From the sequence record NC_073321.1: a DNA stretch of 43,372 bases. One strand, given 5' to 3'. Position 1 is the first letter of the stretch. The number at the start of each line of letters is the position of its first letter. This document shows, piece by piece, positions 2,437-38,771 of the stretch. The translations under genes and the position numbers were made by a program. The notes beneath the pieces were generated by a model that ran no database searches, was not told where the DNA came from, and was given only the letters and a program-made list of their open reading frames with translations. This DNA is from Escherichia phage ZCEC5.

Positions 2437-2633
2437 GCGAAAAACTATTGTTACGTATGCTGCATACGCTTCTTGACGACAACGGGCAGGTGATATTCCA
2501 GTTTACCGGGCGCTACGACCTCCTAATCGATGTCTCTGATGGAACATTTGCTATTGGCGTCGAGTTTGTAGAAAGGGGTGATGCGTTCCAGTATCTAAGT
2601 GATAATTACGACGTACTGGAAGATATTTGCTGA
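2433..2633 (+). CDS. Hypothetical small protein (66 aa)
   Basis: ORF track; ATGA overlap. Confidence 0.5.
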   Translation: MSEKLLLRMLHTLLDDNGQVIFQFTGRYDLLIDVSDGTFAIGVEFVERGDAFQYLSDNYDVLEDIC

Positions 2634-2748
2634 TGAAACTGTTAATCATCCCTAACGCCTGGACTATAGCCGTAGCTAACGACCATTACGGCGGCGATGG
2701 TAAAAGAGCACCACGACACCGTTTATACAACTGATTGGAGAGTGAAAA

Positions 2749-2898
2749 ATGGTTGAATTCGATGATGTTTCATTTGAGGAGCCCATAGACCGGGTTGTTT
2801 TAATAGTGTATTGGGGCTTTTACTCAAAAGCATTCGAAGGCGACACGAAAGCAGATTGCATAAATCAATTACTGCAATGGGTCACAAGCCGAAAATAA
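2749..2898 (+). CDS. Hypothetical small protein (49 aa)
   Basis: Strong RBS GGAGAG upstream of ATG; followed by terminator. Confidence 0.35.
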   Translation: MVEFDDVSFEEPIDRVVLIVYWGFYSKAFEGDTKADCINQLLQWVTSRK

Positions 2899-2906
2899 CA
2901 ACACCA

Positions 2907-2932
2907 AAAGCCCTCCGTAGAGGGCTTTTCTG
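2907..2932 (+). terminator. Intrinsic terminator ending the small-gene array
   Basis: Hairpin AAAGCCCTC-CGTA-GAGGGCTTT followed by TTCTGT. Confidence 0.55.
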
Positions 2933-2960
2933 TACATCCCGCCCAATCCCCTTATATAAT
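2931..2960 (+). promoter_or_regulatory. Candidate promoter upstream of terminase genes
   Basis: Perfect -10 TATAAT at 2955-2960; weak -35 TGTACA 18 bp upstream. Confidence 0.35.
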
Positions 2961-3025
2961 CCCTTTAGACGCGTAGGGCGCGTCTGATGCGCTCTGATGG
3001 TCAGACGCATATGCAAGGGGATTCT

Positions 3026-3535
3026 ATGAAGCTGAAACTTAAGCAGCCATCGCCAGAGGTGGTGCAAGCTGCACATGAAGAAGCTGTTAGTGCAAACCGT
3101 CGCCGTAAACGACCGCGCGGTAAACAGAGCCTTTATCAATCATCCCGTAATTCCGCTGCGTTGTGGGACCCGGACTATTGCGACGCGTTAATCGAGTTCT
3201 TCGACCGCACGTCATGGGAGCTTGTGCCAACGTCTAAGGGTGATGAACGCCCGCTGATTCAGGATAAACCGCCATCGCTCGCCCGCTTTGCCCTACACAT
3301 CGGCGTCACTATCCCGATTATCAAGCTGTGGCTGCGTGAGATACCCGCGTTTGCAGAAGCCTATGAAACAGCACAGGCGCTGGAAGAGGCGTATTTCACT
3401 GAGACAGGGGCCGCGGGTATCTCCGCTACGTTCGCTGCCGCTAAGCTGGGGCTGAATAAAACTGTTGCCACTGAAGAAGTACGCGACGAGCCAATCAGTG
3501 AAGTAACAATTAAGGTGGTGTCCGGTGAACGTTAA
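3026..3535 (+). CDS. Terminase small subunit (putative)
   Basis: Position immediately upstream of and overlapping terminase large subunit; basic N-terminal region; RBS AAGGGGA before ATG 3026 (ORF-track frame 2987..3535). Confidence 0.6.
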   Translation: MKLKLKQPSPEVVQAAHEEAVSANRRRKRPRGKQSLYQSSRNSAALWDPDYCDALIEFFDRTSWELVPTSKGDERPLIQDKPPSLARFALHIGVTIPIIKLWLREIPAFAEAYETAQALEEAYFTETGAAGISATFAAAKLGLNKTVATEEVRDEPISEVTIKVVSGER

Positions 3536-4796
3536 TATCACGGCAACGGAACCGCAAGGCGCGTTTCTCGGTATGCACTGCAAGTTCCCTGCCTTCGTAG
3601 CGGGATTTGGCACTGGCAAATCCGAAGTCATGTGCAACTCTGCACTACTCGATAGCATGGAAGGTGGTAGCGATTCTATCATCGCCATGTATGAGCCAAC
3701 ATACGACCTTGTGCGTCTTATCCTTGCGCCGCGTATGGAAGAAAAACTCACCGACTGGGGTGTGAGGTACAAATACAACAAGTCCGACAACATAATCTAT
3801 ACATCATCCGGACAATTCGGTGATTTTGTTCTGCGTACACTAGATAATCCAGCACGAATCGTTGGTTACGAATCGTTTCGCGCAAAAATCGACGAGTTGG
3901 ACACCCTTAACATGGAACACGCTGAGCACGCGTGGAACAAAGTCATCGCCCGTAACCGCCAGTTACCGCGGACATATAAACCTATTACACCTAAACCGGC
4001 TAATACCGTTTCCGTGTTCACTACGCCGGAGGGATTCCGTTTCGTACATGACCGATGGGTGGTCAAAAAGAACCCTGGTTACGAGATGATTCAGGCATCC
4101 ACCCTGTCTAACCCGTTCCTGCCAGAAGATTATGTGCAGTCATTGCGTGACACCTATCCGGGTCAGTTGATCGACGCCTACATCAACGGCGAATTTGTCA
4201 ACCTAACGGCGGGAACCGTCTACTACGCTTACGACCGCAGGAAAAACAGCAGCCGCGAAACAATCAAGCCCGGCGAGACTCTGTATATCGGGCAGGACTT
4301 TAACGTAGGTCACATGGCGAGCACAGTTTACGTGCAACGGGGTAAAGTCTGGCATGCCGTTGCCGAGTTGGTTGATATGTTCGACACCCCGGATGTAGTG
4401 CGGGCCATAACTGAGCGATGGAAAAGTAAGGGCCACTATATCGTTATGTACCCGGACGCCAGCGGCAAAAACCGTAAAAGCAACAACGCCAGTACCTCTG
4501 ACATCGCCCAATTACAGCAGGCCGGGTTCGAAGTGCGTGCAAAATCGACAAACCCACCGGTTAAAGACCGCGTATCGGCGATGAATAAGGCGCTTGAATC
4601 TGGTATGGTCATGATTAACGAACAGGCTTGCCCGGTTACTGCTCGATGCCTGGAGCAACAGGCCTACGACAAGAACGGCGAACCGGATAAATCAGGTGGT
4701 GTGGACCACCAGAATGATGGAACCACATATCCTATCGCGTATGAAATGCCGATTCGCAAACCAGTAATCAACGTCCCGGTGACTTTCGCACTTTAA
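3525..4796 (+). CDS. Terminase large subunit
   Basis: 423 aa; Walker A-like GFGTGKS near N-terminus; GTG start with RBS AAGGTGG; gene order terS-terL-portal. Confidence 0.85.
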   Translation: MNVNITATEPQGAFLGMHCKFPAFVAGFGTGKSEVMCNSALLDSMEGGSDSIIAMYEPTYDLVRLILAPRMEEKLTDWGVRYKYNKSDNIIYTSSGQFGDFVLRTLDNPARIVGYESFRAKIDELDTLNMEHAEHAWNKVIARNRQLPRTYKPITPKPANTVSVFTTPEGFRFVHDRWVVKKNPGYEMIQASTLSNPFLPEDYVQSLRDTYPGQLIDAYINGEFVNLTAGTVYYAYDRRKNSSRETIKPGETLYIGQDFNVGHMASTVYVQRGKVWHAVAELVDMFDTPDVVRAITERWKSKGHYIVMYPDASGKNRKSNNASTSDIAQLQQAGFEVRAKSTNPPVKDRVSAMNKALESGMVMINEQACPVTARCLEQQAYDKNGEPDKSGGVDHQNDGTTYPIAYEMPIRKPVINVPVTFAL

Positions 4797-8472: not shown

Positions 8473-8675
8473 GAGCTTGTGAAGTATGAACAAGCGACCG
8501 CGGCGCGGGCAGGTAACGGAGCGGGACGTAAGTCCTGAGTGTAGTTACGCTGACGCGTTCGGAAGGGCCACACTCTATTTCTTGTGTAAAAAGTAACTGG
8601 TTTACTGAGATTACGCCGTTTCTATGTTTAAATGATAAGGACTAGCGCCCCGCTTTAAGGCGGGGCTTTACTTAT
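8473..8675 (+). ncRNA. Candidate ~200-nt leader transcript / small RNA
   Basis: Noncoding GC-rich stretch between promoter 8438 and terminator 8644; contains only a weak 36-codon ORF (8486-8596). Confidence 0.25.
8644..8675 (+). terminator. Intrinsic terminator directly upstream of spanin genes
   Basis: Stem GCCCCGC / GCGGGGC (7 bp) followed by TTTACTTAT. Confidence 0.5.
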
Positions 8676-13943: not shown

Positions 13944-15110
13944 ATGGCTACAACTCCTTTTAAGGGCGCGAATACCGCGCAATTCTATGTGGCGGAAGTG
14001 ACCCCGGGCGTAACACCAAGTAACCCGGTCTGGTCGCCGTTGCGTAACACTGGCGGCGTTCCGGCCATTACCCGCGACACGCTGACCTCCAACGAACTGG
14101 ACGGCAGCCGTGAAACTACGTCCATCCGCACCGGTAACAAACAGGTTAGTGGAGAATATGCCATCGAGCTTAGCTCGAAAAGCCAGGACGACTGGTTGGC
14201 TGGGGCTTTAGGTTCTACGTGGCAATCCGGTGTATCCTTGACTGACCTGTCAATTACCGTAGCACCGGCAGGCAAGACGTTCACCCGTGCTGATGGCAGC
14301 TTCATTACTGACGGTGTGGAAGTAGGCGACCTGATTGCGTTCACCGACTTAACGGGTGATAACGCCAAACCGTTTATCGTTACTGCGGTAGAGGCACTGG
14401 TAGTTACCGGCGCGGGCATTCAGCACACCCTCACCACAGAGACAGCCACTACCGCGGCTAAAACCGGCGACAAACTGGAAACCGGTAGCCAGTGTAAGAC
14501 GTTCTCTATTCTCACCTGGTACAAAGGCCAGTGCGGCGGGGCTGACGCGTACACACTGACCAAAGGTGTGGAAGTTTCTGGTTTTACCATCGAACAGGCT
14601 GTTAACGCGATGGTAACTGGCAGCTTCCCGTTCATCGGTCGCAGTCAGGAGATTCTCGCCACGCAGCCGTCTGGTTCTGACTTCTCCTCTGTTACGTTTG
14701 GTGACGAGCCGTTCTCCTCGGTCGACGTTTCCGTGTTCGATGGCTCAACGCCGTTGCGCTGCGACAGCCTGACCATCACCAACGATAACAGCGCGTCCGC
14801 TCAGTTCGAACTGGGCAACACTAACGTAGCGTTTGTGGAGCGTAGCCGTGCGGCTAACACCTTCTCCATCTCCGGTAAGCTGTACGACATGGCGATGATT
14901 CAGAAGTTTATCAACGAGCAGCAGGTAGAGATTAACTCTATTCTGACGGGGGTAAACGGTGCTATGTCTTTCAGTTTGAAACGCGCAGAACTTACAGCGG
15001 TTACGCCAGAAATATCTGGCCCGGAATCAATTACGCAAAGCATAGAAGGACAGTCAACAGGTAACCAGTACCAGTCGTCTATCATTATTCAGCGCATCAC
15101 CTACGCATAA
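13944..15110 (+). CDS. Major tail protein
   Basis: 388 aa, T/S/G-rich, upstream of chaperone and tape measure genes; RBS AAGAGG (GTG at 13938 also possible). Confidence 0.65.
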   Translation: MATTPFKGANTAQFYVAEVTPGVTPSNPVWSPLRNTGGVPAITRDTLTSNELDGSRETTSIRTGNKQVSGEYAIELSSKSQDDWLAGALGSTWQSGVSLTDLSITVAPAGKTFTRADGSFITDGVEVGDLIAFTDLTGDNAKPFIVTAVEALVVTGAGIQHTLTTETATTAAKTGDKLETGSQCKTFSILTWYKGQCGGADAYTLTKGVEVSGFTIEQAVNAMVTGSFPFIGRSQEILATQPSGSDFSSVTFGDEPFSSVDVSVFDGSTPLRCDSLTITNDNSASAQFELGNTNVAFVERSRAANTFSISGKLYDMAMIQKFINEQQVEINSILTGVNGAMSFSLKRAELTAVTPEISGPESITQSIEGQSTGNQYQSSIIIQRITYA

Positions 15111-15114
15111 AACT

Positions 15115-15140
15115 AAGGCCCCGAAAGGGGCCTTTTTCTT
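15115..15140. terminator. Bidirectional intrinsic terminator
   Basis: AAGGCCCC-GAAA-GGGGCCTT followed by T5 on + and T4 on -. Confidence 0.6.
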
Positions 15141-15315: not shown

Positions 15316-15538
15316 CAATATTACTCCTGTACTCCCGTAACTTCTCCAGACTTTCAATTGCTTCTGCTAAGTCGGTTCCGGAGTCTTTGTGACCGCGCAG
15401 ACCCATACACAGCAGTTTCTTTAACGCATGCTGTAGCGCCGGGTCACGGATATCGAAGGCGCGTAGCACATCATAGACGTCTACTGTCATGGTGCTGCCG
15501 TGGGTGTTTGTCATTGTGCGGTTGTATTTTGAAGTCAT
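15308..15538 (-). CDS. Hypothetical protein (76 aa)
   Basis: ATGA-coupled to upstream metallophosphoesterase gene. Confidence 0.45.
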   Translation of the reverse strand: MTSKYNRTMTNTHGSTMTVDVYDVLRAFDIRDPALQHALKKLLCMGLRGHKDSGTDLAEAIESLEKLREYRSNIDE

Positions 15539-16665
15539 CCCAGCATCTCCGGTGAAATAGTTAAACGTGCGACCTCGCCATATTCGGCGCTATAAGTAAT
15601 CACATTTGCGCTACGGCCTGACATCCATCCGCCTCTGGATGCGTAGGCGTCTTTGGCCGCTAAGGTGCGGTGTTGCTCAACAATCATATTACGGCTTTCT
15701 ACAATCTTCTGGTGGTGCAGGTGGCCTACGTGGGCGTAGCTGTAAACACTCTCGCCGAACGCTTTGCGGAACTTAGCAATCATAACCGGTTCGATAGCAT
15801 CGAATCGTGCTTTATGCCCGTGGTGAAAGAACAATGTCGTTTTGCCGTGCTGCACCATCTTATAAACATCCGGCGATGTATCCACGGTAACTCGGCTGTC
15901 TTTTGAGTATAAAGTCGTGAACATTTCAGCCAGCCATACGGAGCCGACAGGGTCGTGATTTCCTTGCACGATAAGCAAGCGAACATTTTTGTGCTTAACG
16001 AGGGCCATATCGACAACACGGCGGACCATACGAATCATGTAGCGGACCAGTTTCTGGTAGCGGGTATCCGCATCCAACACATGGCGCGACTCCGGCGTAA
16101 CGGCATCAAGACTATCAAAGTGCGCGAAGTCCCCCAGCAGGTTAATAACTCCTGTTCCTGCATCTGGTGCTTTCTGAAACGCAGCATCGAACCACCGAGA
16201 GAACAGGTCTTCCGCAATCTTCATATCCCAGTCGTCGCCGCTCTCGTCCGCCCACGCCAGCATACCGAGATGAAAATCAGATACCGTGTAAAGATTGAGT
16301 AGCTTGTCGTCGCGTTTAGCGCGGGCGGCTTTAACAGGCGCAACGGGGGTAATCTCTGACTTCATGCCTTCAACCACGGCTTTCATCAACTCAATCTGCC
16401 GTTCGGCATCGGTGTCGGTCTTAACCCATTGCAACTTAGTGTTGCCAAACTCGTCCACCAGGGACGACGTTCCTTTAATTTTGTAGCCGTCCGGCACAAG
16501 GTGGCTAACGTCGCGCCCGTGGCCTACGCCTTTCTTAGCTAGCTTCGCTTTACGAATACGAATAACGCGGTCGGAGATGCCGTATTTACGGGCGATATCG
16601 ATAATTTTTGTTCCGGCGTTCAATTCTTCCTGTAGCTGTTCGTCGGTTATTTTCTTCTGGGCCAT
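15535..16665 (-). CDS. HTH-domain protein fused to Mre11/SbcD-like calcineurin-type metallophosphoesterase
   Basis: Motifs I-V in order: YTVSDFHLG, LLGDFAHFD, VQGNHD, FHHGH, VGHLHH; N-terminal helix-turn-helix-like region (IIDIARKYGISDRVIRIRK); RBS GAGGAAG. Confidence 0.7.
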   Translation of the reverse strand: MAQKKITDEQLQEELNAGTKIIDIARKYGISDRVIRIRKAKLAKKGVGHGRDVSHLVPDGYKIKGTSSLVDEFGNTKLQWVKTDTDAERQIELMKAVVEGMKSEITPVAPVKAARAKRDDKLLNLYTVSDFHLGMLAWADESGDDWDMKIAEDLFSRWFDAAFQKAPDAGTGVINLLGDFAHFDSLDAVTPESRHVLDADTRYQKLVRYMIRMVRRVVDMALVKHKNVRLLIVQGNHDPVGSVWLAEMFTTLYSKDSRVTVDTSPDVYKMVQHGKTTLFFHHGHKARFDAIEPVMIAKFRKAFGESVYSYAHVGHLHHQKIVESRNMIVEQHRTLAAKDAYASRGGWMSGRSANVITYSAEYGEVARLTISPEMLG

Positions 16666-16954: not shown

Positions 16955-17019
16955 GTAATGTGATAGAATAATTTTGCGCCTAGTGTCGCACACGAAAAGC
17001 GGGTGGTTCCCGTCTGGCG

Positions 17020-17069: not shown

Positions 17070-17486
17070 ATGAAACTTTCTGATTTTTATTTCGAAGAGA
17101 AAGCACTGGTAGGCAAGAAGATGCCGATTCTGCTGCCAAACGGCGAAGACTCCGGTGAGTGGCTTAACGTCGTAAGCCCTGACGCAGATGTCGCCGTTAA
17201 AGCGGGGCGTGCTTTCATTATCGCGTACCGACGCGGGTTGGCGCGCTTTGAAGAACTGGAAAAAGCCGCCAAAGAATCCGGCGACTATACTGAATATAAT
17301 TTGGCCATTAACGAACTGGCGGAAGACCTCAACCGGCAACTTGCGGCGGAAGTCGTAAACGGCTGGAGCTTTGACGAGCCTTTCTCTAAGGAAGCGTTTA
17401 ACAAGTTGCTCGACCAGTTCAAGGCATTAGGCACACAGGTAGCCGCGTTCCATAACGCTGAGCGCAAAGCATTACAGGAAAAGTAG
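17070..17486 (+). CDS. Tail assembly chaperone (gpG-like)
   Basis: 138 aa acidic protein directly upstream of tape measure; followed by -1 frame ORF. Confidence 0.55.
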   Translation: MKLSDFYFEEKALVGKKMPILLPNGEDSGEWLNVVSPDADVAVKAGRAFIIAYRRGLARFEELEKAAKESGDYTEYNLAINELAEDLNRQLAAEVVNGWSFDEPFSKEAFNKLLDQFKALGTQVAAFHNAERKALQEK

Positions 17487-35912: not shown

Positions 35913-35941
35913 ACTATAATAGCGAACTATTCACGTGTCAA
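35913..35941 (-). promoter_or_regulatory. Class A promoter TTGACA-17-TATAGT with palindrome AATAGCGAACTATT
   Basis: Divergent from the Cro-like gene promoter. Confidence 0.55.
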
Positions 35942-38537: not shown

Positions 38538-38771
38538 TTATTCCAGGTCTTCTAAAGTAGCGGTCATTCCGCGAACTTCAGCAACAGCACTATATTTCCC
38601 GCCAACATTTTTCACGACACCAGATTTAACCAGCACTTTCAACGACCCTTCAATAATGGCTGAACTATAGTACTTAAAATAACTACGGCGCAAGTCGATA
38701 ACGCTGCACGACCCTTTTTTACGTGTTAACGAAACTACCGCCGTAAATACGCGTGACTGGAACTCGGTCAT
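38538..38771 (-). CDS. Hypothetical protein (77 aa) with C-terminal TLEDLE tail
   Basis: ATGA-coupled; C-terminus resembles those of the primase and DUF2800 proteins. Confidence 0.45.
   Translation of the reverse strand: MTEFQSRVFTAVVSLTRKKGSCSVIDLRRSYFKYYSSAIIEGSLKVLVKSGVVKNVGGKYSAVAEVRGMTATLEDLE

Follow-up and report, generated by a model that had tools for sequence, protein, structure and literature searches.

A conserved two-hairpin leader at the head of the terminase operon in Kagunavirus-type phages and their relatives

The hairpins that lie immediately upstream of the terminase small subunit gene (terS) of Escherichia phage ZCEC5 (NC_073321.1) probably form the promoter-proximal 5' leader of a Kagunavirus-type terminase/head (late) operon, and this is the overall explanation favoured here. 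Comparisons across clades show that the two hairpins are, as predicted structures, evolutionarily maintained on the plus (mRNA) strand, and it is highly probable that a functional leader RNA is made from the promoter at nt 2931–2960. The leader is a previously undescribed instance of a familiar kind, the promoter-proximal structured leader. More than 400 sequenced genomes of Kagunavirus, Jerseyvirus, Cornellvirus and Dhillonvirus carry it at the start of their late operon as an RNA motif that is supported by covariation and has so far gone unannotated, and many of these phages are candidates for therapy or biocontrol. The window referred to below is the whole stretch of DNA analysed (43,372 nt), which by its sequence is a Kagunavirus-type (Guernseyvirinae) siphophage genome.

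Organisation of the region upstream of terS

The leader region is preceded by an intrinsic terminator (nt 2906–2929, plus strand), a hairpin of 10 bp with 100% complementarity (AAAAGCCCTC-CGTA-GAGGGCTTTT) and then TTTTCT, which ends the upstream transcription unit. Sequence similarity to many relatives starts at this terminator, indicating a module boundary at that point. On the same strand there follow a −35-like hexamer, TGTACA (nt 2931–2936), an 18-nt spacer and the −10 box TATAAT (nt 2955–2960). With 10 of 12 consensus matches, this is a predicted sigma-70 promoter (nt 2931–2960) heading the terminase/head (late) operon. From the geometry of sigma-70 promoters, transcription is predicted to start at A2967, the seventh nucleotide past the −10 box, where hairpin 1 also begins.

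Hairpin 1 (nt 2967–2985, plus strand) is the perfect 7-bp inverted repeat described in an earlier sequence-only reading of this DNA, and was recovered both by a repeat finder and by RNAfold. Its arms, AGACGCG (nt 2967–2973) and CGCGUCU (nt 2979–2985), enclose the 5-nt loop UAGGG (nt 2974–2978; TAGGG in the DNA), which is probably an AGG triloop closed by a U2974-G2978 pair. A single unpaired linker nucleotide, G2986, separates it from hairpin 2 (nt 2987–3010, plus strand), the imperfect second repeat of the same reading. According to RNAfold, this is a hairpin of 10 bp with one bulged base (C2992), an outer stem AUGCG/CGCAU, an inner stem UCUGA/UCAGA and the loop UGG (nt 2998–3000); as DNA it reads ATGCG[C]TCTGA-TGG-TCAGACGCAT. 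The heptamer GAUGGUC around the loop (nt 2996–3002) is invariant among relatives. A duplicated CTGATG had also been reported, and the repeat finder extends it to TCTGATG (nt 2983–2989 and 2993–2999, plus strand). Hairpin 2 ends 4 nt before the Shine-Dalgarno (SD) sequence AAGGGG (nt 3015–3020), itself 5 nt upstream of the terS ATG (nt 3026), and all of these elements lie within 60 nt of the terS start, as previously noted. RNAfold of the window leader gives exactly hairpins 1 and 2. Neither of them is an intrinsic terminator or attenuator by the usual definition, as no U-run follows (the next bases are GAUGCG and AUGCAAGG, respectively), and the nt 2906–2929 hairpin is the only one near the leader in which a GC-rich stem stands directly before a U-run. 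The gene itself, terS (nt 3026–3535, plus strand; 169 aa), is followed by terL (nt 3525–4796; Terminase_6N/6C domains), and the portal gene also lies downstream.

Two further pairings were considered. An alternative 8-bp pairing of nt 2980–2987 with nt 3001–3008 was rejected: it is broken by a Jerseyvirus change that is nevertheless compensated within hairpin 2. An outer inverted repeat (AATCCCCTTATATA/TATGCAAGGGGATT, with a second register) would pair the −10/discriminator region (nt 2945–2966) with the SD region (nt 3010–3027), and such a helix would mask the terS ribosome site only on RNA from transcription that has passed the upstream terminator. The helix reaches significance in Kagunavirus and Dhillonvirus (p ~0.006), is weak or absent in Cornellvirus and the divergent leader L106, and was for that reason dropped as a feature of the family.

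Conservation in related phages

The sequence-only reading had proposed comparison with relatives as a check, and this comparison revealed that the two-hairpin structure is kept with compensatory changes. The terS start served as the anchor in an alignment of 50 IMG/VR loci that carry a close terS. The order terminator, −10 box, hairpin 1, hairpin 2, SD sequence and terS is common to Jerseyvirus, Cornellvirus, Dhillonvirus and Serratia phage Otaku, and a tblastn survey showed that TerS identity falls sharply across the group, from at least 80% to about 32% for Cornellvirus, Dhillonvirus and Otaku; clades with this layout include some in which TerS is 27–29% identical. Every clade has a terminator at the equivalent site, consisting of a GC-rich hairpin and a T-run, with a stem of differing sequence. 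Between Kagunavirus and Jerseyvirus, the promoter hexamers are kept while the 18-nt spacer has diverged. The −10 box is TATAAT in Kagunavirus, Cornellvirus, Dhillonvirus, Otaku and L106 and TACAAT in Jerseyvirus, and the Dhillonvirus version (TGTTATAAT) is an extended −10. Outside Kagunavirus and Jerseyvirus the −35 hexamer is TTGCCT or TTGCCA with 17-nt spacing (TTG-type in Cornellvirus, Otaku and L106).

The geometry of the leader is tightly constrained. In all clades 6–7 nt separate the −10 box from hairpin 1, and this fixed distance places hairpin 1 at the predicted 5' end of the transcript. The linker between the hairpins is 1 nt in Guernseyvirinae and 3 nt in Dhillonvirus. Hairpin 2 ends 4–9 nt upstream of the SD sequence, a purine-rich equivalent of which is found in all clades, and 15–21 nt upstream of the AUG. 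Invariant in every clade are GG(G) in loop 1, GAUGGUC at loop 2 and a distance of exactly 17 nt between them, and the two (A/U)GG loops always stand exactly 20 nt apart.

The stems, in contrast to the loops, turn over freely. Those of hairpin 1 have been replaced wholesale (AGACGCG/CGCGUCU, AGAUGG/CCGUCU, AGGUGG/CCACCU, AAGGCC/GGCUUU and GAUGGCG/CGCUACC). The inner stem of hairpin 2 occurs as UCUGA/UCAGA, UAUGA/UCAUA, GCCGA/UCGGC and ACCGA/UCGGU, with double changes of UA to GC, CG to AU and UA to CG, and its outer stem as AUGCG/CGCAU, as CCAG/CUGG in L106 and as GCGC/GCGC in Otaku; the bulged base may be C, A or U. The alignment of Kagunavirus with Jerseyvirus alone contains a C-G to A-U double change and a change of A2987 to G (giving G-U) in hairpin 2, and a change of GCGUCU to GUGUCU (again G-U) in hairpin 1. 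The predicted fold consists of two hairpins for the RNA of each clade except Otaku, and in most clades the SD sequence and AUG of the promoter-initiated RNA are predicted to be unpaired.

When viral contigs were scanned with the pattern, the motif invariably adjoined this terS family; in other genomic contexts, the scan returned only chance matches that do not fold. This linkage could be functional or merely inherited. Searches of E. coli genomes gave no match to the leader, and no further copy was found in the window, where covariance model R1 gives a single match (77 bits). The motif is absent from distant terS homologues (IMG/VR contigs L129–L131, ~440–540), in which an extended −10 promoter (TGTTATAAT) is followed immediately by a GC hairpin and U-run, a terminator-type leader, and then by terS. 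The arrangement in these contigs suggests a different leader-level control of terS. Another match, with 99% identity over the promoter-leader query, was to nt 38662–38761 of CP088689.1, a 44,086-bp 'plasmid' of an E. coli blood isolate. The deposited 'plasmid' is probably the genome of a Kagunavirus, reflecting either a carrier state or contamination.

Covariation and strand preference

Covariance model R2, built without any Dhillonvirus sequence, detects all Dhillonvirus leaders (E ~5e-5). In its alignment, 98.6% of cells form standard pairs, compared with 15–64% when the 3' partners are slid, and none of 500 shuffles matched the observed covariation score. Hairpin 1 was also examined in a loop-anchored, gapless and structure-blind alignment of 14 variants. 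Here 91.3% of cells are paired, against 26–63% with slid partners, and the Y-G pair closing the (A/U)GG triloop is formed in every variant. Eight of the nine pairs have changed on both sides and are thus compensated, and the observed values were equalled by 0–1 of 500 shuffles; as the clades are related, the independent compensatory events are fewer than the cell counts suggest.

The hairpins form in each of the 42 distinct sequences linked to terS. As a negative control, 32 unrelated viral contigs carry the bare string TATAAT-N13-18-GGG-N17-GATGGTC by chance, and none of them form the two hairpins. Among the distinct stems, the cells that depart from Watson-Crick pairing are G-U in 15 cases and A-C in three (p = 0.008), the latter comprising two singleton variants (L193 and L046) and one position in the divergent L106 leader. 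An excess of G-U over A-C points to RNA of the plus strand; neither a cruciform nor a site in double-stranded DNA would produce such an asymmetry.

Expectation by chance

Taken by itself, one such hairpin in 43 kb is within chance, and it is the comparative evidence that carries the case. The window holds 42 perfect 7-bp repeats of the hairpin type (overlapping registers counted), compared with about 17 ± 4 in simulated sequence, and neither the hairpin motif pattern nor the promoter pattern is enriched within its 43,372 nt. Folding z-scores are modest (−3.0 for nt 2960–3040 and −1.8 from the predicted start site), and those of single sequences across the clades are weak (−0.3 to −1.9). These figures, with some 17 perfect 7-bp hairpins to be expected at random and an unenriched motif, are what would speak for a functionless inverted repeat in an intergenic spacer. 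Against it, the structure has been kept with compensatory changes in at least five clades and more than 400 database genomes, and conservation of the leader exceeds that of the downstream TerS protein. It is this conservation with compensatory change in relatives that places the leader beyond chance, and the covariation statistics together with the non-folding control matches effectively refute the chance reading, to which a negligible probability is given. The duplicated CTGATG is a by-product of arm sequence common to both Kagunavirus hairpins. The duplication is specific to Kagunavirus, the corresponding sequence being TATGATG in Jerseyvirus and absent from Dhillonvirus.

Function of the leader

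In the mechanism proposed here, the terminator at nt 2906–2929 would close upstream transcription and the host sigma-70 promoter at nt 2931–2960 would restart it. The transcript, beginning at about A2967, would fold at once into the hairpins of nt 2967–2985 and 2987–3010, and hairpin 1 would leave at most one unpaired 5' base and in this way protect the late mRNA against decay that depends on the 5' end (RppH/RNase E). A single conserved partner acting in trans would dock on the two invariant GG loops and determine what becomes of the transcript; candidates for it are RNA polymerase during elongation, the ribosome and a phage protein, for instance TerS. Loops that stay invariant while their stems turn over freely imply that a specific partner is required, and the conservation of the loops across phages of several enterobacterial genera suggests either a host machine (RNA polymerase or ribosome) or a conserved TerS core.

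Protection of the 5' end may be the main job of the leader, a view that is held only tentatively. Stem-loops of the ompA type protect mRNA 5' ends, and a stabiliser of this kind prolongs mRNA half-life by a route that depends on RNase E and RppH; the ompA leader is about 133 nt long. The likeness to the ompA 5' UTR stabiliser lies in a short leader with a 5' hairpin having 0–1 unpaired bases in front of it (from the predicted start) and a second hairpin near the ribosome-binding site; the geometry, with few unpaired 5' nucleotides, fits if transcription starts at the predicted position, the seventh nucleotide after TATAAT. The present leader, with its predicted 5' end, is much shorter than that of ompA. 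Stabilisers of the ompA type also act through structure alone, whereas here the loop sequences and the spacing between them are invariant over deep divergence, which implies specific recognition. Since a pure stabiliser needs neither invariant loops nor fixed spacing, protection alone cannot explain everything.

No description of the leader element was found in the annotated records that were examined, in Rfam or in the literature that could be searched, and a literature search for transcription start data on these phages found none. A scan of nt 2500–3500 against Rfam 15 (E ≤ 10) returned nothing at the gathering threshold; the only two matches, both sub-threshold, were mir-2331 (18.3 bits, threshold 100) and rsmX on the minus strand (17.9 bits, threshold 56). 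With two loops and two stems, the element is compact and easily mutated, and would be suited to probing leader-RNA devices in virulent siphophages; 5' protection, polymerase modification and autogenous translational control could all be tested with it.

The sequence-only reading had offered either a packaging-initiation site or a translational control element. Were it a packaging (pac) site, TerS would recognise the DNA of the hairpin cluster and terminase would make its first headful cut here, which is considered improbable. The location invites the idea, as the pac sites of headful phages lie in or beside terS: that of P22 is inside gene 3, and that of SPP1 (pacL-pacC-pacR) extends across the gene 1 promoter region, so that it too overlaps the terS promoter region. 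Kagunavirus, Jerseyvirus and Dhillonvirus are reported as headful packagers, with no mapped pac site found in the literature on these three genera; the motif is strictly linked to this terS family, and GGG-N17-GATGGTC is an invariant string at the DNA level. The P22 and SPP1 sites are, however, double-stranded DNA sequence signals, whereas the present element behaves as a single-stranded structure of the plus strand, as indicated by covariation and G-U wobble. Its arms covary with complete sequence turnover around fixed loop centres, the reverse of an inverted repeat read by a protein, and G-T (G-U) mismatches are tolerated on one strand only. The strand-symmetric conservation with kept palindrome arms that is characteristic of a double-stranded pac site was not found in the leader. 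PhageTerm detected no termini for a Kagunavirus, a submolar pac fragment was not observed for the Jerseyvirus K47, and no database record that starts in the leader region does so from mapped ends. The start points of such records were set aside as pac evidence because they were the annotators' choice in each case checked: the Shashou record starts at the annotated ribosome-binding site of a long ORF, K47 exactly 50 nt upstream of terS, and others at the long-ORF ATG. Covariation, strand asymmetry and the position directly behind a conserved promoter together favour an RNA element, and with it control of the late genes at the RNA level, over a double-stranded packaging signal, and the evidence argues against using the hairpin cluster as a pac site when genomes are re-oriented. 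Of the two roles first offered, packaging is thus left unsupported and the plus-strand RNA structure comes nearer to the translational one, except that sequestration of the SD sequence and AUG by the leader itself is not borne out, both being predicted to be unpaired in most clades. For the same reason, the leader does not appear to be a self-contained translational off-switch, and any translational control would need a bound factor. Such a factor, TerS or another late or early phage protein bound to the two GG loops, would make the leader an operator that blocks or promotes 30S binding at the SD sequence and so sets the amount of terminase. The distances from hairpin 2 to the SD sequence (4–9 nt) and AUG (15–21 nt) correspond in all clades to the edge of the ribosome footprint, invariant loops at a fixed spacing would suit a dimeric or oligomeric binder, and the motif always accompanies this terS family, the conserved part of which is a central helix-turn-helix-like region. 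As the predicted fold leaves SD and AUG unpaired, however, the leader itself contains no switch, and an operator would not require hairpin 1 to be so strictly tied to the start of transcription; this explanation is considered unlikely.

Comparably unlikely, but closest in form, is an RNA that acts like the put sites of phage HK022. By analogy, the nascent leader would bind host RNA polymerase without a protein factor and make it resistant to pausing and termination, so that late-operon terminators are read through. HK022 put is the nearest functional analogue of the leader as read here, both being cis-acting nascent RNA with two stem-loops and a very short linker at the head of a long, terminator-containing phage operon. 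HK022 putL lies directly behind the sigma-70 promoter PL and is paired from nt +3, and its position and gross shape are matched by the leader: two stem-loops (1–3 nt apart) at the transcript 5' end, directly downstream of a sigma-70 promoter, with the stem-loops and the transcription start of the leader being predicted. The plus strand of the late region has intergenic terminator-like hairpins at nt 8647, 11038, 15115 and 17622, and the loops are invariant in phages that infect Escherichia, Salmonella, Serratia and Raoultella, as would suit a target conserved among the hosts, RNA polymerase for example. There is also some resemblance in sequence. In the HK022 genome, putL was located on the minus strand (about nt 2689–2762 of the reverse complement, in agreement with the numbering of the cryo-EM paper); it starts AU-AGACG-AACGGCG-CGUCU, and so begins AGACG...CGUCU like the window leader, with which it shares the 9-mer GGCGCGUCU and then AUGCG, a similarity that is not statistically significant. 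Homology was ruled out in spite of this AGACG/GGCGCGUCU resemblance, which is missing from putR and from the Dhillonvirus and Otaku leaders. The PL-PR region of HK022 scored at best 5.6 bits with covariance model R1 (E = 1, a non-match), putL and putR when locally aligned with the leader did no better than dinucleotide shuffles (p 0.04–0.9), and the similarity expected of a put site (about 70 nt, with blocks such as CGAACGGC, GUCGGG and AGGAUGA) was not found in the leader. The leader is 44 nt long compared with about 72 nt for put, and the critical bases of put are bulges and junction residues rather than loops. Antitermination by put needs no protein factor and depends on the zinc-binding domain of the β' subunit of RNA polymerase. 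In HK022, put sites have long bulged stems and a triplex and serve the early operons of temperate lambdoid phages, whereas the leader has short stems and invariant GG triloops and stands before the late operon of virulent siphophages. Partial read-through of the late-operon terminators would moreover require no special device, so that an antitermination role for the leader is possible and not required. Slightly less probable again is the specific proposal that the leader is a miniature counterpart of put, independently evolved or extremely diverged, in which a 44-nt RNA clamps host RNA polymerase through its GG triloops. Clamping right after promoter escape would then give terminator-resistant late transcription in virulent Guernseyvirinae and Dhillonvirus phages without a phage protein. 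If this were true, antitermination by an RNA that needs no factor would no longer be confined to a few lambdoid prophages and would be shared by hundreds of lytic phages that are used in therapy.

Two other known elements resemble the leader in part. Lambda nut/boxB hairpins and the GGA hairpin sites of CsrA are likewise short and promoter- or SD-proximal, and offer a few invariant loop bases to a protein. However, boxB has a GNRA-like pentaloop and a boxA partner, and the leader, with (A/U)GG loops followed by G or U, has no boxA-like element and falls outside that definition. For CsrA there is the further likeness of two sites about 18–20 nt apart; no GGA was found in the loops of any of the 42 distinct sequences, where the loops are (U/C)(A/U)GGG and UGG-U, which does not agree with a CsrA/RsmA site.

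Assignment of the terS start codon

The ORF finder and many database records, including those of Shashou, SETP3, UPWr_S1, K1ind1 and FSL SP-031, begin terS at the ATG in hairpin 2 (nt 2987–3535 in the window). This longer ORF, which runs through hairpin 2, is probably an annotation artefact. The start is assigned to the ATG at nt 3026 because the PHROG 3064 'terminase' profile aligns from residue 1 of the 169-aa protein, because of the position of the SD sequence, and because the counterparts of the ATG at nt 2987 lie in another reading frame in Dhillonvirus and run into a stop in Otaku. The record of phage K47 annotates the 3026-type ATG. Many of the terS genes in databases look as if they carry a recurrent over-extension of 13 codons, and the assignment corrects this recurrent annotation error.

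The invariant AUG in the loop of hairpin 2 (GAUGGUC) opens a 10-codon ORF, MVRRICKGIL (nt 2997–3029), the UGA of which overlaps the terS AUG (AUGA). The AUGA overlap is also found in Cornellvirus; in other clades, the hairpin-2-loop ORF terminates elsewhere or continues in frame into terS. The overlap could be due to chance or could be a coupling device. Near the other end of the gene, a mosaic boundary lies inside the terS 3' end (about nt 3450–3460). In one set of Kagunavirus genomes, nucleotide similarity is lost after about nt 3459, with a differing TerS C-terminus and terL type, while in others it continues into terL.

Other features of the genome

A bidirectional terminator (nt 15115–15134) follows a gene ending at nt 15110, and beyond it a 376-aa gene on the minus strand (nt 15535–16665) interrupts the structural region, which otherwise lies on the plus strand. 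A TATAAT promoter of the minus strand is found at nt 16964–16936. Given this terminator and the embedded minus-strand gene, the tail genes after nt 17070 probably need a promoter of their own; the leader motif does not recur at the promoter expected there. On the minus strand, blocks of replication genes are headed by three near-consensus sigma-70 promoters (TTGACA/TTGACG-N17-TATAGT; nt 35941–35913, 33111–33083 and 29199–29171), which are likely to be early promoters. They are much nearer to the −35 consensus than the terS promoter is. The first three nucleotides of the window are the ATG of an endolysin-like gene (nt 1–486), and genes of the plus strand continue from about 39.5 kb over the window end into nt 1–26.4 kb. 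With plus-strand genes continuing across its ends, the window looks like a complete, arbitrarily opened and circularly permuted genome.
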